From Balanoglossus misakiensis (lineage: Eukaryota; Animalia; Hemichordata): a DNA stretch of 64,000 nucleotides. The notes under the pieces are model-generated. The model searched no databases. It saw only the letters and a list, made by a program, of their open reading frames with translations, and was not told the origin of the DNA. Below, in pieces: positions 768 through 12,892 of the stretch (position 1 is the stretch's first letter; every line of letters begins with the position of its first letter). The position numbers were made by a program, and so were the translations under genes. The stretch covers positions 3,268,349 to 3,332,348 of the forward strand of contig CM082586.2 of NCBI GenBank assembly GCA_040954595.2. The letters run 5' to 3'.

Positions 768-3003
768 GAGGGAAACGGGGTTACCCTGAATTGAGTTGCA
801 TAGAAGCATTACACTGTAATAAACTGAACTCTTTCATTGTATCAGACTGCATTATGGCGTTGCATCTGGAAAGTAGAATTTACATGCACAATGAGTGTTA
901 CTATATTTACCACTATTCAATGTCATAAATTTATATTCCCTCTTCTCTATATCCAGACTTAACATCGAGTACATTTACGTTCAAACCATTTAGAAGGATT
1001 TCTGCCGGTACTACCACATTCATTCCATTACATGTATGGAACCCATTTCCACAGTCAAGGATCTGTGGGGGTCACAAACCTATGCAAATTTATTATTTAA
1101 GAAAAGAACATAAGACAAGAGAAAATTTTACCAACACTGCATGTATTGTACATTGAATTTGAAAGACTGTTTCTGATATAAACGAATCTACACCAGTAAA
1201 TTTGAATATTCATTACAATATGAATATTTCATTGTTCCAGTATAAAATATGGGTGTATTTCCCTAAGGGTTTTTATAATCAAATACGTCAAATTGATGAA
1301 ATAGACTGTGGAGTCTTTGGAGTGGGGTACTATAATAGGATGAATATGGTACACAAACATGTATCATGATGGACATTACATCTAATACACTATCTATAAT
1401 TGATTATGTACAATTTCCTGATCTTTAAATTCTGACTGTGATCGACCATTATCTAGAGCTTAAAAGCCTGAAAAGCATTACAGCAAATAAGTAAAGATGG
1501 ATGAAGTTTTAATAATTATTTATACAGCAAGATAGCGCACGGGAAGGATTTTGTATCTCATTATGTGACCATCAGATACAATATTGACCAATGCCTCTGA
1601 TCACATGCTGCTCATGTTATTAAAATTAAACTCAATCTGGCAACGATAAAAAATGGGCTCAGCGTCAGAAAATATCTTGCCATTATAGCATAAAAAAGAG
1701 GTATAGCTAAATGACAGAGAAAATGCCATGAAAGTCCTTAAATTAGATGATAAAAAAAGCCTTACTATCTACCCTGCCTTGTCCATTTTTCATCCAACAG
1801 GAAGAGACCGTTTACAGTGTATCTTATCGTAGCATTGCATTAGACACAAGAAGTATTAAAAATGCAGGAGATGACCTCTGCAGTCTGACTTCACAGGATT
1901 CTGACATGATTAATTCTCATGAAGTCAGCATAGAACTGCACAAAAAAGAACTTCGTTTCGGATCATATCGAAAAAAATATCTACTGGCATACGTAAAACA
2001 CCATATATATATTCTGAATACAGAGTTCTTTCACCAAATTCGGATGTACATGTAGTCCATGCATCACACTTCAATCAGCTTTTCTAAAACAGAATCATGG
2101 CATTCTGAGAGTACTGTCTTTTTGACCAAACATTAAAAATAAGCTCATGATAAGATCGAGTTTGGTTTCAGCATATCCTGAATTTCAATGCATTTCCAAT
2201 GTATTTGTACACAGAACCCATAAATGAAAGAGAACAGAATGCCTACTGCAAACTGCCAGAGTACCAATTCCTGTTTGCCCTTGACCAACGGACACAGGGA
2301 TATGTGGGCCTGGGTGGTTCAATCAAGTGTAAATTGGACAATAGTGGCTTGTATTTTAAAACTGGTAATGTGAAACTTGTACTCGGGCCTCTTTTACTTT
2401 TTCATTCATGTTTCATGGGAGCATAATGCATAATTTATGAAAACCGTTTGAATCTTGCCACTACAGAATACAAGTCATGTCATGAATGGTTGGCAAGAAT
2501 GCATTTTTAATGGGCCTTCTTTTGCTCCGTATTCAACTTCCCGGTGAGGTTCAGTCCAAAATTTTAAAAGTGCAGATGAATTGGCATAAAGGCAACAAGA
2601 TGTTCTGTTTTGATGCAGCACTATCTGAGTAATCCACACACATGTACTAGTTTTACACGGTAACGCGATGCATATCACAGGCCTTTGTTGGGTCAAGGGT
2701 CGTGACCTCGACATTTTGGATTCAGCAAACGACGGGAAAATAGAAACGGAAAACTACGCCATTTTACTCAACTGCAGCCAGTTTTGGGGCGCAAAAAATC
2801 CACCGAAAGATGTGTTAATAATCGAGGTTAAATTATTAGGGGTCAAATTATACTGTCGTGATGTGTTTTGACCATTTTATGGAGCGAGAAAAATATCAAA
2901 ACTGATCAACTGTCGGTTGTCGTCGACATGGCGGCTGTCACTACGCTACGATGTCGAATAGTTGTATGGCCGCCAAAACGATCAATGTATTTTAATTACT
3001 AAC

Positions 3004-3300
3004 CTGAACTTCGTTGCACAATTTTTGAAGCTCCGATTCAATTTTCAACCTGTACTCTTTGGCATTCTGTTTTTTGCTTTCGACATCAGTCTTCTGCTCG
3101 ATGCTAGAAATTACCCTCCAAGAAGAACGCCTGGCCCCGACCACATTTTTGTAGGCCACTGACAGCAGGTTGCGTTCCTCCCGACTGAGCTCCATTTCCG
3201 ACTTTTCGGTCACCTCTTTCATCAACCGGGCCATGTCATCGTAACGCTCGGCCTGCTCGGAAAGCCTGGCTTCGTCAATCATACTCTGTAGCGACGACAT
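3004..3300 (-). CDS. 14-3-3: 14-3-3 protein, first coding exon (gene continues beyond the left edge of the window)
   Basis: Translation [23 protein letters not shown]...[30 protein letters not shown]...LCNEVQ contains the 14-3-3 signature motifs. 297 nt ending at donor CAG|GTTAGT (phase 0). No second exon was recognised in 1-3003. Confidence 0.95.
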
Positions 3301-4094
3301 TGTGTAGGTTAAAATTCACACGAACAGAAAACCAGGCTATCTCGGAATGAAATTGTTTCAAGGGTCGATAAACGGCCTACCGGGCACTCCCAAAACACGT
3401 ACATACACGACACAGTACGGACAACATTGGATATCAATCCGCAAAAATGGAGGAAACCCCCACATTGTATGCCTGCTTTGGGACTATAATCGTATTTAAC
3501 ATTAATTATTTAGGTATTATGATGAAAATTTCACCAAACCGTTATCGCAGTCGGCGAACGGAACAAAACGCGACGAATTTAAGGATTATTTTCTTTCAGC
3601 GGATTGAAATTTTTTGTGAATGAGCAGTGGTTAATTCATAGGTTTACCTCGGGTGACGTCATCACAGTTACTATAGTAGGGAAGTGTCCAGGGAGACCAC
3701 CTGTACTGTGTGTATGTCAGTGTGTGGTAAAGCTGGAAAATCGGTGTCGGGATCGTTCAGAAATCAGCCAGCCTTGTGAATTCCCGTAGCCCGGAACGAA
3801 GGGATTGCATTGTGACCAGTTTTCTGTATTTCCACGGGCACTTACAGTAATTATTGTGGCAGGAATTGTTCTGAATGGCGCCCTCGGCGTCCATAGTGTG
3901 GACTACCTTCTTTCACAATTTAACTTTATGGGTGGACTATATATGCAATTAGCTAAAGTAAAATACAAAACAACAGGTGAAAAACTCAGAAACCACAAGT
4001 TAGATTGCTTTCATATTGATATAAAGTTATGTATTTCTTGTATCAAACATAATTAATGGGAAAAGGGCAGCGAGAGAGAGACTTTGTTCCTTTA

Positions 4095-4246
4095 ATGTCA
4101 ATTCCCATCTGTTGTTTCATTCTTCATTGTCAAATGCTTATACTTGTCATTGTCAAATGCATCAAACCCAATCTCTGGTATGTCCCGTTTGGTCGAATTT
4201 TGTTTTTATGGAAATCAAATGTCACAGTCCAATGGAGCCACTTTCT
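4095..4246 (-). pseudogene. Orphan duplicate of the last coding exon and 3'UTR of the solute-binding-protein gene (original at 9727-9915)
   Basis: Near-identical to 9727-9915 apart from a ~44-bp deletion. Minus strand reads KVAPLDCDI* versus NVAPLDCDI*. The splice acceptor is lost (CTG instead of CAG) and no upstream exons are seen. Confidence 0.75.
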
Positions 4247-4752
4247 CAGCTTAGTAGCCTGCCTACACCGATCAGTCTTTGGCCCTTGGCCTACCGGCAA
4301 ATTGATGGTTTTATTATTTTACTATTATAAACTTTGAATTGCCTCTCAAATAAACGATGTTATCTGGAAAGCAATAACTTGGAGTTATATATGAATACAT
4401 GCGGTGATTTGTGGAACTGAAGTGGGGGTATAAATTAAAGCACTTTATGGAATGACCTTGATAAAAAGTAAGCATGGCCTACTCATGTTGAACCTGATTT
4501 TTCAGGCACGACCGATAGACACACACGTGATATCGGATCAAGGTTATTTCAACCCACAATCCCTCCACGCAGTACTGATCGGCATATCATACCTCCTCCC
4601 GACCTTGCCCTGGTCGCGATCCCATCATGCAACATCCTGAAACACATCGCTTTGACCGACCTTCAGTTTTTCACCCTAAAACCATAAATAAGAAAATGCA
4701 TGGCGCATTTGGTACGTGCAGTTAACCAACTTTAGTTTTATAATTTATAAGT

Positions 4753-4882: not shown

Positions 4883-5033
4883 GGATTTTCGCAAACTTGT
4901 CTTCGTTCAACAAGATTCTTCCGAGTCGGACACAAGTATAGTTTACTACCTGTTAATCATATCGGTGCTTCCTTAAATTCGAGGTATCCAGCAAAAACCT
5001 TGACAAAGTCATTATAGAATTCTCGCTGCTGCG

Positions 5034-8000
5034 ATGTTCAAGTTGTTAGTTCTTGCTCTGGCCTTTTTGACGGTGGATTGTCGGCGCGCCACCCCGAACG
5101 GAGACTGTCGAATGAAGGACTCGTATCAGATATGTACCTACGATTGGGTACTAACACACAAGGAGACAATGGTCCTTTACGACGAAACGACAGGAGTCGC
5201 GATCGGTACTCCCGTTGTCGTGAGAAACGAGACTTTCTACAAGCGTTCCAACGACCAGTGTGATGGCTTGATAGAAATGAAACCAGACGGTATGTCTTCT
5301 TCTGATAAAAGTTTTGCCTAAAACCCAACCGGGCGACACAGTTTCCTTCCATATGCCTACCATTTGATGTGTTCGCGAATTTAGTGCGGGGTCTTCTTTG
5401 CGTGTTTTGGTACCGTGCGCCCCGTAAGACAAGTTGATTATATGCCGTTTGGATGGTTATGGCCACGCAGACTTCAGAACTACGAACCAGCAGGACCGAA
5501 CATGTCTTGCTGGTAACACACTTGAAGTCAGCATGGTTGTTTGGTCAAATCACCGGGAACACATATATCATGTCGTCCATAATTCTCGTTCACTTCACAG
5601 ACCACAGGTGCCTGCGCATATGCTGATATCGAACGGCCTCCATAGCCTCTATCAGGCCCAGAAGGCCGTTTGATAACAACATTCGCGAGCACCTGACAGT
5701 AAGTGCCTTTACCTTCCAGAGATTGATTCTGTTCTGACGGTTGACGGGTCACATGGTAAAGCTCTAGTGATTAATGGTCAGTTTCCCGGACCTCCAATAA
5801 TCGTCGAAGAAGGAACTCGGGTATGCTCTAGAATTTAATTATCCTGTTTATCAGCTGCATTCGAGAACTAATGACACATCCCTTTCTCATATCTACGCTG
5901 TGCTACTGAAAGTTTGTCGGCTCCAATCAAAAGAGGGAAGGTAAACCTCCATTCACAGAAACATATGATTGGTTGAAGATAGGGTTGGGCCTACTCTGAT
6001 TGGCCATTATCTACTTCTTCACCTTGTATTACCAGGTTGTTGTTCGAGTTAAGAATCACTTGCTTGGAGAAGGCATATCGATTCATTGGCATGGCATGTT
6101 TCAGCGAGGGACCCCCTGGATGGACGGCGTTGCATCGATCTCCCATTGTCCCATCAACCCAGGAGAGAGTTTCACATACCGGTAATGACTGCTTTGACTA
6201 TGACATTTCTACTCCGAAGAAAGATATTGGGCTGTGTAACTGGATGTATACAATTATCTATCTATGTATCTCTTTGTCAGCTTCCTGGCGACTCCCGCAG
6301 GCACTCACTGGTATCACTCGCACGCTGGAGTTCAACGGACTGATGGAGTGTATGGTGCCTTGATAGTGTTAGAAAAAGATGATGAGAAATACAAGGGCAA
6401 AAGGGTAAAGATCATTAGTGTCCCTAAAGCTACGTTTGTGTCACTACTTTTGTACACATTTATCGACAACATATCGAATAACTGGCATCTTATCCGAATA
6501 TTTAACGAAGCTTATCACGACAATTCTTACTCTCTCTAGAAACACCACCACAAAGGTTCAGAGTTCAAATTCGAAGAAGACTTTCTGTTTCTCGTACAAG
6601 ATTACATGGGGGAACCGTCCCTTGACACCAGCATTCGCTTATTGTCCTTCACTGCAAGGTGGGTGGCGAGATTCTACCTGACTTTGAAATGGAAATTCCG
6701 CTGCCAAACACCAAGAAATACGGCTGTTATCTAAGAAAAAGTGACAAGTTAATCACGTTTATCTTTTGCTGTAAAGTATAAATGGACCATCATGTTTTGA
6801 CATTAAATGCGATGATCAAAACATTCACGTCATCTTCCTATTTCCAGGTTTGCCCCAGGGTACGACAACACCGATCAGTGTTTTTATCAGGCGGCTCAAA
6901 TAGACGGCGCAGAAGCTGGAACGACTCCGTTTAATTCTGGGCTCATCAATGGAAAGGGTAAGATCAATGTGTACATCCGTTAAAGGGCGACGATCGTCTT
7001 ATGCGCATGTGCCAAGCCAGAGACTCACTAGGTTACAAAAATTGTATACAGTCAATGCCAAAGGGCAGCGTACTGTCCTAATAGCAGAAAAGATAGTGGC
7101 GACCATTGAATGTATCGGAGATCGGGACAAGACAGCAAAAGGAAGGGAAAAAAACTGAAGTTCACAGTAACTTCGTATCTTCACACTTGCAGGCTGGCAC
7201 TACCTTTCACACGAACGTCCCGAAAACAAGGTCATCCCTGTGGAAGTTTTCAAAGTACAGCACGGACTCTTCTATCGTTTTCGACTCATCAACGCCGGCT
7301 CGATCCACGCTTTCCGTGTTTCCATCGATGGCCACCACCTTCACGTGATCTCCACAGACGGAAATGACGTCACACCTCGTAAAATCCAGTCCATTGTTGT
7401 GCACACTGGCGAGCGCTGTGACTTCTACATCAAAGCATCCGAACCTGTATCGAATTATTGGATACGGGCCGAAACACTAGAAACAACCAATGTTCTCGGT
7501 GTAAGCAAACATGAAATCAAGCAGTCAACCAATCAGTGACGCATCATCGATAATGAGTAGCGTACTAAGCACTTTATCAAAATAGTATTTACAACTCACA
7601 CCATAAACACATCAATTCCCCGTTCATTATTTTTCAGGAAACGGTCACACCTGGACTAGTATCTGCGATTCTGAGATATGATGAAGCGCCCCAAACCTAT
7701 CCTCTGAGCAAACGCAGACGTTGCGAAGTGGCCTGTGATGTGCTAAACTGTCCTTTCGGGTGAGGAACTACTTTGAAGTAGGATAGCAGCACATAATTGT
7801 GCTGTGTTTCTTAAAATGTAGGGTGTCCCCAGACACTCAGCTTTTGCATGCTTCCAAACATGCCAAAGTTTCCCTACCGCTCCACCACCACCACCACCAC
7901 CACCACCACCAACAACAACGACAACAACAACAACAGCTGATAGTTTGTCAATATTCTTCTCCGACAGTCTTGAGGACACGACTGGCTTCAATTGTATTCC

Positions 8001-9541
8001 CGTGTCGAGCCTCAATTCAACTTACCACGGACAAGTCCCCAAGAATTCAAGCGGTCGTGGATTTCAAGAACACTTCCTTCATTTCAATTTCTTCGGCAGA
8101 GAAGTGACAAAATCGGCCATCAATGGCCGATGGTTTATTCTACCGTATGCTCCACCCGCAGTAAGTCTCCCTAGAAAAAATGGACGATACTCTTTCAAAA
8201 CTAACTCTGTCTGCTACATATGGCCAGAAAGACCGGTTTTAGCAAACGTACACTGTATACTACACGAACCGGATTTCGCAAAAATAACCATTTTGTACGA
8301 TACTTCTGCAGACTCGCCCAAGCACAAATCACTCGGACTTCATGGTCCCCTGCGATGACGATGAATGTGATAAGGACAAGTGTGAATGCACGTATTTCTT
8401 AGACCTGAAACTCGGCAACGTCGTTCAACTGGTACTATTCAATATACGCCCCGGTAAGTTTTATACTCTTTCAAGAGAAACACGTGGTCTATAGAGGGTA
8501 CGGACCACTGACAAGACAACATGTGAGGAATAATATTTACATCATCGTTCGAATATAACTATATTCAAAGTTGATGTTTTTTTCCACAATCTGACCAAAA
8601 TTTTGTTTTCCCAGATAACCCTACTTACGGATCCCCCCATCCAATTCATTTGCACGGGCACCACTTCTACGTATTGAAGACAGGTTACCCACTATATAAC
8701 ACCACTACCGGTAAATCCGTTAGTAATTCACCTGATATAGACTGTGGTGGCAGTGTTCAATGCAACGTGGGCAAGTGGGCAAATGATAGCTGGGGCGGAG
8801 ACAACATACCTGGCCTAAACCTTGACAACCCACCACTTAAGGATACCGTAACTGTTCCTGTTGGTGGCTACGTTGTGATACGATTTTTAGCTGATAACGT
8901 TGGTATGTACACCATCTTTTCATTTCGCAGTCAGGTAGTTTGATACATTCTGCAGTAGTCTGTTTGAGTCATTTTGTTCTGGAAAAGGGTGAACCCTGGC
9001 CAATTGTCGGGGAGGGGGGGTGTTGCCCGGGGCAGCTGTCCAGATATTCTTATGCCCAATTATTTTCCAGGTTGGTGGTTCCTTCACTGCCACATCGAAA
9101 TACACCAGATAGAAGGCATGGCCCTATTGTTGAAGGTAGGTGACGCTGACATGATGCCTCGACCCCCAAAAGGATTCAAAATGTGTGGCAACTTTGATTG
9201 GTCAGCGGAGGACTTCGAAGACGCCATTTCTTCCCGCGGTGAGTTGTTTGATGTTGAACCTCATAAATTGAACGACACACGCTGACAGTCGAATCGTTGA
9301 ACCAACGCCGGAAATGACAACGTTACTAAATGTAGAGATTCTCAATTTAGACCTTTCAGGTGATGCATTCTCAGACTCAGGTAATATGGCCGCCGGCGGA
9401 GTGACACAAAGTGAGCAGTCTCATGTAGGTGGTGATGGTCCAAACATCGATGAGGGCGTCTACTCTGAAAAGACTGACGGAATGCACGGAAACAGTCAGA
9501 AGACTCAAGTGCAGGTTGATGGCGCTGAGGGAGCCCCTTAA
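5034..9541 (+). CDS. Secreted laccase-like multicopper oxidase, 13 exons, ~752 aa
   Basis: Exons 5034-5289, 5720-5820, 6036-6181, 6281-6404, 6540-6658, 6848-6957, 7193-7500, 7638-7759, 7968-8160, 8312-8453, 8615-8902, 9071-9238, 9360-9541 join in frame with GT-AG introns (2259 nt). Signal peptide MFKLLVLALAFLTVDC. All four Cu motifs are intact: HWHG, WYHSH, HPIHLHGH, HCHIEIHQIEGM (axial Met). AATAAA at 9621-9626. Confidence 0.93.
7882..7934. repeat. (CAC)n(CAA)n microsatellite in laccase intron 8
   Basis: Trinucleotide tract lying between donor 7760 and acceptor 7967. Confidence 0.85.
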
Positions 9542-9883
9542 TTACCCAACCAAACTCTTCTGTTTGTAACCACGCCCCATTTGAGTGGTCACTTGTATCG
9601 ATAAAGCTATAGTAACTGGAAATAAAGTTGGAGTTGCTTAATATTACCACAGAACACATGTCTCCCTTACATACAATTACAACTACAAGACCCCTGTCTG
9701 CAGGGTAGAAAATTAAGGTATTAATCATGTCAATTCCATCTGGAGTTTCATTCTTCCCTATCATACTGGTAGCAGCACCTCTTCTTTTAAAATACTTGTC
9801 AAATGCTTATACTTGTCATTGTCAAATGCATCAAACCCAATCTCTGGTATGCCCCGATTGGTCGAAGTTTGTTTTGATGGAAA

Positions 9884-12800
9884 TCAAATGTCACAGTCTA
9901 ACGGAGCCACATTCTCTGCAAACAAAAGAAAGAAACTAAACTAAGCTTAAGTTGGGGCATGAACGTTTGTGGTGACATATACTGTACCCGTACACGTGTG
10001 CGATATATTTTTGACATTTTCAGTATTTTTACATGTATTTAAGTACTAGTATGTTGAAATCCGGAGTATTCAGGTTTTGTTGTACGGTCGGATGATACAT
10101 ACGAGATGGTAATGCCATTGATGCCATAGCAACTGGCGTATACGTATACCGTACGTCATTGTTCTCACCAGGAGTATTGTCGAAGTTGTTGAAACCACTA
10201 ACCGTATTTGCGACGTGCAGCCATGCACAGGGCTGCGTACTTTCCGCTCTTCTTCATCTTGCTCAGGGCCTCGTTGAACCACTCCGTTATGGGATTGTCC
10301 TTCCTCGAGGCGACGCTGACGCCCTCGGAACAGGAAAGGGTGTCGCCGATCGGTACGTAGCCTTCCGGTACACCGCTGAGGAGTTCAAATCGCCGTTCGC
10401 CGTCCTCTCCCCAGACCGGAAGTTCGAGTCCAAAAACCGCATCAACGTCCTTGTTCGAAAAGAATACAACGCAGTGTCAGTGTCTTGTGGTGGTCACATG
10501 ACCAAACTGAGAATACATGGCTTTTGATTTGGTGGTGGTTTTACCGTGTGGAAGGTCAGACTAGATGATCACTCACTCATTTATTCATTCATTCATTCAC
10601 TCGCTCACTCATTCTTTCAGTTACTCACTCACTCACTCACTCACTCATTCATTAACTCACTCACTCATTGATTCACTCACTCACTCACTCACTCACTCAT
10701 TCATTCACGGGTCAACGGTCTGAGTGTGAACTGTGCCTCATACCTGGTGTTTCTCCAAATACTTAGGTAGCGCTGAATATTCCAAGAGAATGTAGTCGTG
10801 GAGATGAATACCGGAACCAGTCACATTGTTCTTCGCGAGGCACCGGAAGTTGCTTTGGAAACCCTTCAGATACACTGGACATTTGGAAAGAAATTTATCC
10901 TTTAAATCACACATCTGATAATGATAAGGGTGTTCGTTTTAACGAATGTCTGTCCCATCATGATATCCAAGTAGCCCAAAATAAAAAAATGACATACCTA
11001 TTTTCTTCCTTGTGATGTCTTTCGGGTCAAAGTGTTTAGGGTTTTCCGTTTTAACATAGAAGCGAGAGTTTCCAGAATACTTGTAGAATGATTCAGTAAA
11101 TGCGAAAATGTTGTCCAGTTCATCGGTTCTTGTAAGAAAACACGCGTCACCTGTTCCACCAAGTATTCCTAGTGTACAGTTACAAAAATTGTAGTGAAAC
11201 GTTTGGGGTGAGAGGGTGGGGTTTTAACGTTGTGCTAGGGGGTCAAATAATTGCATTGTTGGTAAAAGGTCGACAGCTCGTTGTGATAGGGTTTGAAGAG
11301 ATGACATGTAACCTGTAGTGTATTTCATGATGTCTTCTTTCTTTCTTAAAGCCGGTCTTGTAGTTAGCTTATATAACTCGTGCAAATTTTTTCCATTATG
11401 TATTTTATCAGCTCTTAATTTCCAACTAATAGTTTCAAACATTTACCTTTTCCCCCTTCAAGGGCACCACTTCTATCGGAGGTCAAGCATTTTCTAAATA
11501 GCTCATTCTCCAGTCTGCATTTTTTACCCGCTTCTTTGCACACTTTATAACAAAAGAGAACAGAAGTTGAAAGTCGACAACGGACGATAATACCACAGAC
11601 TTTGAAATGTTACAGTATAAAAATAAGTCAAATAGGTCCAAATTACCTCCTCCAATAAGATCCGCAAAGTAACCTTGAAATGAACCATCTTCATCTCTGC
11701 AATCCCGAAAGCGAAAGGTTGTTGTCATATTCAACACTAATTAATAAACACTTGAGGGTAGATTTGTAACAGTCAATACATCTTTTTTTTTGGTGTGTAA
11801 TTTTTGTGGTGAAGATATTTTTGTGTATACAAAATAGTCCCATATAACACGCGTTCTAAGCAACCCAAGTAAACGTTCTAGTTGCATTTGAAGTAGTAGC
11901 CTATGTATCAATTTAATCTGTTATGGATATACTCACATATAATGAAAAATATAGTTAGGCACAGGTTCGGCGAGAAACGTGTAGACTCTGTCATCTTTCT
12001 CTTGCAACTGGACATCACGAATAGCCTTCGTCAGTGTATCCTCGAGGACGTGCAAAAACAGCAACATATGTGCCAGGTGGTCTTGTCGGTAATTTGCCAT
12101 TCTGAGGGTTGCTAAGGCTAGGCCGTCACCCAAATCCAGCTGTTACAAGTTGGCAATAAGGGTACGGTTGTTGTTTTTAGTTTGACATTTTGCCATAACG
12201 TGTAATAAATTGCGATGTTTTTCCTGAGCTGGGGGTCACTACTGGTGGACAGCACTGACCCCCGCCCGAGATTATCTTGACTGTCTGAACGTATTTGCAG
12301 GAGACTGACTGAGTTTTATTTCTATTTCATATGTTAGCCAAGTTTTCAACCAAATCCTCACTAGATACTCGAACGACTTACATCAGTTACATAGCGTGTC
12401 ATCATCGCACGCACTGTCGACATGGGAACGGTGTGTGACGTCAGAGCCCGAAACACCGGCAGGAGACCTGGACGGCCAGCAAAATCATCCAGACCAACAT
12501 CAAATACATTAATGTTGTCAATCATCGGGTTGCGATAAGACATTCCTCCTAAAATTTGTGCGTGTGTGTGTGCGTGTGCATGTTTGAAAGAGAGAGAGAG
12601 ACAGACAGACACAGACACACAGAGAGGGTACGTCATTAAAATGTGTAGTTATGCATTGCTCCATTGAGCCCACACGCACCGTCTAAAGGTATATCAATAC
12701 AATTACCGGTACTTGTTCAACAACTTGAGACGATATATATCCCAGTAGTCATACCGATACAAACTACGCGCCGTTTCGCAAAAAGTGAACATACTTGCGC

Positions 12801-12892
12801 TTGTCGCGAGACCGTGAATATATCATTATCAACTAACCTTGGATCCACAACCCAAAACACGCCACAATAAGAAGTCTTTGTACACCTGCCAT
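9884..12892 (-). CDS. Secreted stand-alone type-2 periplasmic-binding-fold protein (SBP_bac_3 / HisJ-LAO-ArtJ-like), 9 exons, 383 aa
   Basis: Minus-strand exons 12892-12838, 12548-12382, 12139-11937, 11696-11647, 11542-11447, 11168-10998, 10874-10744, 10449-10203, 9915-9884 join in frame (1152 nt). Signal peptide MAGVQRLLIVACFGLWIQGGMS. Motifs FHYIDEDGSFQGYFADLIGGVCKEAGKKC, DACF..AFTESFY, DITRKKIVYLKG, DVDAVF and SRKDNPITEWFNEALSKMKKSGKYAAL match HisJ-family motifs in order. Confidence 0.85.
10569..10708. repeat. (TCAC/TCAT)n tetranucleotide microsatellite in an SBP-gene intron
   Basis: About 35 imperfect tetramer copies. Confidence 0.9.
12558..12626. repeat. Compound (GT)/(GA)/(CAGA) microsatellite in SBP-gene intron 1
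   Basis: Di- and tetranucleotide tracts next to the exon 2 acceptor. Confidence 0.8.

Follow-up and report, generated by a model that had tools for sequence, protein, structure and literature searches.

Free-standing periplasmic-binding proteins are a prokaryotic device, and in animals the fold is known mainly from inside receptors. The ligand-binding domains of ionotropic glutamate receptors (iGluRs) share this PBP2 superfamily fold and retain its carboxylate-binding Arg. Among the bacterial solute-binding proteins (SBPs), LAO has a C38-C45 disulfide, and the D161A mutation is reported to cut its arginine affinity from 1.0 nM to 42 uM (10.1101/2023.03.18.532921). PDB titles name nine LAO binding-site mutants (D11, Y14, D30, F52, S69, S70, S72, R77, D161). 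Deuterostome genes with microbial relatives have been proposed as horizontal transfers by Simakov et al. 2015 (PMC4729200).

The window described here is a stretch of 64,000 nucleotides (nt) from the acorn worm Balanoglossus misakiensis (contig CM082586.2, positions 3,268,349 to 3,332,348), and all coordinates are positions within it. Nine exons on its minus strand, at 9884-12892, join into an open reading frame (ORF) of 383 amino acids (aa), whose 1152 nt are 383 codons and a stop with no internal stop. The gene appears to encode a secreted, two-lobed SBP, probably derived from bacteria, with a cleft that lacks the amino-acid anchors and that may close on an uncharged, apolar small molecule. 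Judged from the sequence and the model of a relative, this reading as a whole has about an even chance of being right (roughly 0.5). Its sequence places the gene in an expanded multi-gene family present in at least three acorn worm families.

The binding domain and its pocket

The SBP domain spans about aa 125-375, and residues 139-365 match bacterial family-3 SBPs as one continuous profile match. A profile built from 13 bacterial SBP domains gives the spliced protein 34.7 bits, compared with at most 6.9 bits for 1000 shuffled versions and -2.0 for the reversed sequence. Five of the nine true homologues scanned exceed the PF00497 cut-off (26.4 bits). TIGR01096, the profile of the LAO, HisJ and ArtJ proteins, is the best or second profile for all nine, but the best homologue reaches 39.7 bits where its cut-off is 256.35. 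These matches put the protein in the PF00497/PBP2 superfamily. It falls outside the LAO/HisJ/ArtJ functional group, as the ligand anchors are absent and the score cut-offs are not reached.

In the PDB, a profile of 11 animal proteins matches 54 sequences at E<=10. HisJ, LAO and the arginine binder AncQR are at the top, and no iGluR chain is among them. None of the nine homologues matches an iGluR Pfam family at E<=0.1. Exon 8 alone matches PF00497 at E=0.011, below the cut-off, and its eight best sequence matches in the PDB are amino-acid SBPs, all weak. Exon 6 gave only weak PDB matches to deferrochelatase, which were set aside, and a word-based homologue search with exons 8 and 6 found nothing.

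A two-lobed LAO/HisJ-like fold is predicted from the AlphaFold2 model of P0005, an acorn worm relative with 40% identity, in which the predicted local distance difference test (pLDDT) is mostly 80-95 across the SBP domain. LAO and HisJ are the top Foldseek matches to this model (best E 4.5e-15, to LAO). VIA-align superposes it on LAO (1lst) over 220 residues (Z 18.3, root-mean-square deviation 5.4 A), and on an isolated lobe (6xks) over 139 residues (Z 17.9, 2.8 A). Among the Foldseek matches listed and the 50 listed by VIA-align, none is an iGluR chain. A homodimer prediction for P0005 scores 0.01 and gives no evidence either way.

An earlier note on this locus had proposed a HisJ/LAO/ArtJ-type domain with a HisJ-like Cys pair, had pointed out that animals are best known to have this fold split within ionotropic receptors, and had suggested PF00497/PBP2 profiles and AlphaFold with Foldseek as checks. 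The profile comparison, run on the homologues and with the 13-domain bacterial profile, agrees with that assignment, as does the model of P0005. The sequence is nearer to bacterial Arg/His/Lys binders than to iGluRs, and the Cys pair is present as C160 and C167.

The pocket was compared in an alignment of 13 animal and 57 bacterial domains, for which 50 loci were taken (2 from unpublished genomes were omitted and 4 lacked a full domain). The C38/C45-type Cys pair is kept in all 13 animal domains and in 10 of the 57 bacterial ones, those 10 all being of the Art/His/LAO type. Arg77 is found in 4 of the 13 animal domains and 55 of the 57 bacterial domains, an acid at LAO position 30 in none of the animal domains and 47 bacterial ones, and Asp161 in none of the animal domains (one has a gap) and 44 bacterial ones. 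Only one bacterial domain lacks both Arg77 and Asp161.

In the protein encoded here, Arg77 is replaced by Leu208, Asp161 by Leu299, Asp30 by Phe152 and Ser120 by Phe253, and the equivalent of Tyr14 is also lost. The six motif-anchored pocket columns read Phe152, Phe174, Thr203, Leu208, Phe253 and Leu299. They hold no charged residue, compared with a bacterial mean of 2.6, and their mean hydropathy is 2.55, compared with a bacterial maximum of 0.70. The assignments of Leu208 and Leu299 are stable in three alignment modes and in the large alignment.

Gene structure, acorn worm family and neighbourhood

The exons of the gene, all on the minus strand, are as follows.

12838..12892, minus strand: exon 1, start codon (ATG at 12892) and predicted signal peptide (aa 1-18), with a GT donor and the top hydropathy window
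12382..12548, minus strand: exon 2, aa 19-74, first half of the N-terminal helical region, with AG and GT ends and no Pfam match
11937..12139, minus strand: exon 3, aa 75-141, the remaining helical region and the first strand of the binding domain, with AG and GT ends and tblastn matches to P0019 and P0002
11647..11696, minus strand: exon 4, aa 142-158, SBP domain, with F152 at the LAO Asp30 position
11447..11542, minus strand: exon 5, aa 159-190, with C160 and C167 (the LAO C38/C45 pair), F174 (LAO Phe52) and C177
10998..11168, minus strand: exon 6, aa 191-247, with C200, L208 at the LAO Arg77 position and the first hinge strand
10744..10874, minus strand: exon 7, aa 248-291, second lobe, with F253/Q254 at LAO Ser120/Thr121 and C259
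10203..10449, minus strand: exon 8, aa 292-373, with L299 at LAO Asp161, C331, C366 and the C-terminal helices of the SBP fold
9884..9915, minus strand: exon 9, aa 374-383 and the stop, with C381 and a strong polypyrimidine/AG acceptor

All eight introns begin with GT and finish with AG, and they are 104-294 nt long. The GC content is 0.48 in the exons and 0.39 in the introns. A tblastn search of the window with the acorn worm relatives gives matches on exons 2-8 that end at or near the called junctions; the P0019 match in exon 2 lies at 12459-12379 (67% over 27 aa). Exon 9 has neither a hydrophobic tail nor an endoplasmic reticulum (ER)-retention signal, and its terminal C381 recurs in 11 of the 12 homologous domains that have a residue there. 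The minus strand shows no canonical poly(A) signal between 9000 and 9884. In intron 7 there is a degenerate tetranucleotide microsatellite (10570-10710), and intron 1 has dinucleotide repeats.

The Kyte-Doolittle maximum in a 19-residue window is at the N-terminus (1.37), and every later window is at or below 1.11. This profile fits a signal peptide and no membrane helix, a reading made from hydropathy only; the homologues likewise start with a hydrophobic stretch. The protein has nine Cys, one in the predicted signal peptide, the C160/C167 pair and six others. Each of the six is present in 11 to 13 animal domains, and each of the eight Cys of the SBP domain is kept in 11-13 of the 11-13 animal domains in which its column is filled. 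The six extra Cys fit added disulfides in a secreted protein.

The predicted exon chain is that of a genuine, intact nine-exon animal gene. That it could be a chance reading, a pseudogene or bacterial contamination is hardly conceivable, given a 383-codon frame open across eight canonical introns, full-length homologues and the difference in GC content between exons and introns. Contamination in particular is not a live option, because the neighbours are ordinary animal genes, among them a multicopper oxidase and mucins. The earlier note had read nine GT-AG exons into a 383-aa ORF, with a signal peptide, no transmembrane segment and six Cys beyond the LAO-type pair, and had taken the gene to be animal and not bacterial. 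This is borne out, as regards the signal peptide and the lack of a membrane helix by hydropathy, and the full-length homologues are collinear with the spliced model.

A region of about 105 aa lies between the signal peptide and the SBP domain. It is conserved from about residue 48, is predicted to be helical (at low confidence, in the P0005 model), and has no Pfam match in exon 2 or the homologues scanned. Within aa 48-124, nine of the 11 proteins checked carry one to four short helical motifs of the form hydrophobic-Arg-Ala-hydrophobic. A propeptide cleavage site ahead of the SBP domain was sought across the homologues and is not conserved. This conserved helical region was absent from the earlier note's description.

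Exon 6 (56 aa), searched against 1.84 billion representatives at E<=0.001, matched ten proteins, nine of them from acorn worms. The tenth, P0010 from Anaeramoeba, has FGF-like repeats and was dropped as a false match after a Pfam scan. An alignment search added two further relatives. Ptychodera flava contributes nine clusters at 90% identity, spread over five large contigs, and Saccoglossus kowalevskii and Glandiceps talaboti add further relatives, so that three families of Enteropneusta are represented. The range observed, acorn worm and bacterial relatives, comes from this 56-aa query and from the search with an alignment of eight proteins, which gave four proteins and missed known members. 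Near-full-length acorn worm matches are collinear, with E values of 5e-108 to 3e-51 and 31-46% identity. P0005 aligns over residues 1-381 of the spliced model (40%), P0002 and P0019 align from residues 48/49 to 381 (46% and 45%), and the Saccoglossus protein is 31% identical. Over the tree columns the identity to relatives is at most 48-49%.

The relatives are already in RefSeq under automatic names. In P. flava, XP_070569830.1 is a 'histidine-binding periplasmic protein-like' protein, XP_070544308.1 is 'arginine-binding periplasmic protein-like', and XP_070534050.1 and XP_070532161.1 are 'uncharacterized'. The G. talaboti protein XP_077977404.1 is a 'putative ABC transporter arginine-binding protein 2', and S. 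kowalevskii LOC100375244 is also a relative. Similarly named RefSeq proteins presumably exist in echinoderms as well. The names 'histidine-binding' and 'arginine-binding' are probably wrong for these acorn worm proteins. One entry, P0017 (S. kowalevskii XP_006823585.2), has two tandem SBP domains in 672 aa and is flagged as low quality; it may be either a real tandem protein or two neighbouring genes fused. The earlier note's view of a bacterial-type SBP in an animal holds, but the gene belongs to an expanded family with relatives in RefSeq and is not a single gene.

No published description or functional study of the acorn worm family was found in a literature search that covered subscription papers thinly. 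The family does not appear in the main text and two spreadsheets of PMC4729200, whose candidates are listed in Supplementary Note 10 and Extended Data Table 1. What is new here is apparently the remodelled amino-acid pocket and an undescribed family expansion, while the RefSeq relatives and the existence of microbe-related deuterostome genes were already known.

The gene sits between a multicopper oxidase gene and mucin genes. A Pfam scan matched eight of nine ORFs in the window, and none is a permease or ATPase. The gene has introns and a defined locus amid bona fide animal genes, which are among the features by which acquired genes are judged in PMC4729200. The first coding exon of a 14-3-3 gene lies at 2995-3302 (minus strand, Pfam E 9e-30). 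The oxidase is a laccase-like, multi-exon gene at about 5030-9542 (plus strand) with a hydrophobic N-terminus. It is convergent with the SBP gene, from whose stop codon its own is separated by about 340 nt, and the 3' ends may overlap. On the other side are two tandem gel-forming-mucin-like genes, at about 14365-42900 and from about 46100 (both plus strand), with EGF, VWD and long Pro/Thr/Gly repeat exons at about 1.5-kb spacing and a cystine knot that ends the first gene. Tandem VWD/mucin clusters are described in hemichordates and amphioxus (PMC4729200, section 8).

A direct copy of the last exon and 3' flank of the SBP gene (9727-9919) lies beyond the oxidase gene, at 4095-4250. Over 124 bp (4127-4250) it is 94% identical, a second match of 31 bp accompanies it, and its splice acceptor is not AG. 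The copy looks like a duplication remnant that brackets the oxidase gene.

Origin of the family

Two trees were built from the animal and bacterial domains, both by quick searches with support from the SH-like approximate likelihood ratio test (SH-aLRT) only. The second tree dispenses with four trait columns and five long rows and was built under a simpler model. The animal domains form a single group in both (SH-aLRT 100). Within it, an Arg-kept branch (Saccoglossus, Glandiceps and one Ptychodera protein) separates from an Arg-lost branch, which unites this gene with eight Ptychodera proteins, and the split persists without the Arg77 column (SH-aLRT 92 and 93). The first tree places the animal proteins with the Cys-pair Art/His/LAO proteins (SH-aLRT 98), but in the second they no longer group with this subfamily. 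The eight best-scoring bacterial domains are all in the Art/His/LAO group.

No close bacterial relative was found in the genomes of one phylum or in the plasmids searched. The animal profile matched 3 of 301 genomes of that phylum, weakly (E about 2e-4), and the plasmid matches are Arg/Lys/Orn-type SBPs with 22-27% identity (among 30 of 60 rows listed). Viral contigs gave no match. Searched by its larger clusters, the ESM Atlas gave bacterial clusters alone, most of them SBP_bac_3. A metagenome match (L001) is a chance match of 20 residues in an unrelated prokaryotic locus, and two genome-contig matches of 16 residues each were also taken as chance.

Horizontal transfer from bacteria is the simplest reading of these relationships and a likely one. 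The earlier note had proposed an old bacteria-to-animal transfer or a retained ancient gene. Transfer is likely, but the grouping with Art/His/LAO proteins vanished in the second tree. Of the groups that the note had outlined for a phylogeny, the trees compare bacterial SBPs and animal relatives. The family would have had a single origin before the three acorn worm families split, and introns and Cys would have been gained afterwards. Every sampled member would have lost the acidic pocket residues, and the branch to which this gene belongs would have lost Arg77 as well.

The gene could instead be an old eukaryotic one, or derive from an ionotropic receptor whose ligand-binding domain became independent; in other animals it would have been lost or become unrecognisable. 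We consider this improbable. It draws on the long stem branch (1.2-1.7 changes per site) and the lack of a stable bacterial sister group. It also draws on trees confined to animal and bacterial domains, with no eukaryotic outgroup, and on the narrow reach of the searches beyond acorn worms. SBP_bac_3 domains are moreover reported inside some sponge iGluR-like proteins (10.1101/120998). Neither the PDB matches nor the Pfam scans of the homologues contain an iGluR, however. No membrane segment parts the two lobes of the domain, which is continuous and has a Cys pair that in the bacterial sample is confined to Art/His/LAO-type domains. The homologues agree with the protein in length and layout.

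Proposed function and comparison with known systems

The signal peptide would lead the protein through the ER, where its Cys would form disulfides, and the two lobes, from their predicted pocket, would close on an uncharged, apolar small ligand. Unattached, in mucus or body fluid, the protein would then carry or buffer its ligand, like an odorant-binding protein or lipocalin, and paralogues with other pocket linings would bind other ligands. A free role is proposed because the protein has no membrane anchor and because animals are not known to have a type I ABC importer that could be its partner. Acorn worms are rich in bromophenols and haloindoles and produce mucus in large amounts (PMC6315191). 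The halogenated aromatics that they accumulate are putative ligands, as candidates only. A broader view is that a captured bacterial importer subunit gave rise to an undescribed family of secreted small-molecule carriers in acorn worms, and perhaps other deuterostomes, in which the Arg-lost branch binds apolar ligands such as halogenated aromatics or mucus cues. The fold would then have been recruited into animals separately from glutamate receptors, to make a functional counterpart of odorant-binding proteins and lipocalins. This view is tentative, and the odds are against it.

Several observations weigh against an apolar ligand cleft of this kind. The pocket is read at about 15-20% identity to LAO and from the model of a relative, not from a structure of its own, and gaps or instability affect the alignment at LAO 11, 69 and 70. 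Arg204, a position that is basic in 8 of the 13 animal domains, is four positions from a lost anchor, and Glu300 is one position from another; a register shift could let these two residues supply charge. A cleft of apolar residues might equally serve for contact with another protein, or just be shut. The N-terminal 140 residues of the P0005 model are of low confidence (pLDDT about 35-60).

The SBP fold may have been kept for something other than binding small molecules. The protein would then be a structural or protein-binding part of the mucus or matrix, or a soluble receptor partner, perhaps acting through its N-terminal helices. The loss of the canonical anchors, six added and conserved Cys that could stiffen the lobes, the conserved helical region of about 105 aa and the position beside mucin genes all agree with such a role. 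The neighbourhood by itself shows no link, however, and the change in the pocket columns is no random one but runs consistently towards apolar residues: 11 of 13 animal domains have Trp at LAO 120, and eight of nine Arg-lost members are aromatic at LAO 52. We regard a non-binding role as unlikely, though as the strongest of the competitors to a carrier.

Binding of free, basic amino acids, with extracellular scavenging or buffering as in HisJ, ArgT and ArtJ, is what the RefSeq names imply. The best profiles are indeed Arg/His/Lys binders, the eight top-scoring bacterial domains all have the Cys pair, Arg77 is retained in four animal domains, and Arg204 and Glu300 are close to the lost anchors. 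This role is improbable, since the equivalents of Arg77, Asp161, Asp30 and Tyr14 are gone here, a joint loss of Arg77 and Asp161 being almost absent from the bacterial domains, and since the homologues fall so far below the TIGR01096 cut-off. The earlier note had suggested an extracellular ligand carrier or scavenger; a carrier remains the best reading, but a HisJ-like amino-acid scavenger is unlikely because the HisJ/LAO anchors are absent.

Cyclohexadienyl dehydratase evolved from an amino-acid SBP, and a further, very improbable alternative is that this protein has likewise become an enzyme, secreted and with a small apolar substrate. The rebuilt apolar cleft adjoins Glu300, which is common to five of nine Arg-lost members, and ancestral dehydratase reconstructions are among the PDB matches (weakly, E 0.02). 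These matches span only the C-terminal helix common to all such SBPs, however, and no catalytic motif is conserved across the family. A secreted carrier stays the preferred reading. An intron-rich, expanded and secreted family in three acorn worm families would extend the microbe-related genes of deuterostomes to a non-enzyme, and the Arg-kept and Arg-lost branches would offer a comparison for ligand change after the loss of the transporter.

Within the acorn worm family, the protein shares with its relatives a hydrophobic N-terminus, a helical region, a single SBP domain and the conserved Cys. It and one other member lack the CxC motif found in 11 of the 13 animal domains, and it has Phe at LAO 120 where most have Trp.

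Compared with LAO/ArgT, HisJ and ArtJ/ArtI (TIGR01096), the protein is alike in its predicted fold, collinear profile match, C38/C45 pair, Phe52 and C-terminal helix. It differs from these proteins in having introns in its gene, six extra Cys, an N-terminal region of 105 residues and no ABC operon, in missing the equivalents of Arg77, Asp161, Asp30 and Tyr14, and in scoring far below the NCBIfam cut-offs. The S1S2 domain of iGluRs has the same PBP2 superfamily fold, but the domain here is continuous and free-standing, without channel segments, and the carboxylate-binding Arg is gone; with no predicted membrane segments, the protein is not an iGluR. With the genes of Simakov et al. 2015 (PMC4729200), whose nearest relatives are microbial, it shares introns and ordinary animal neighbours.

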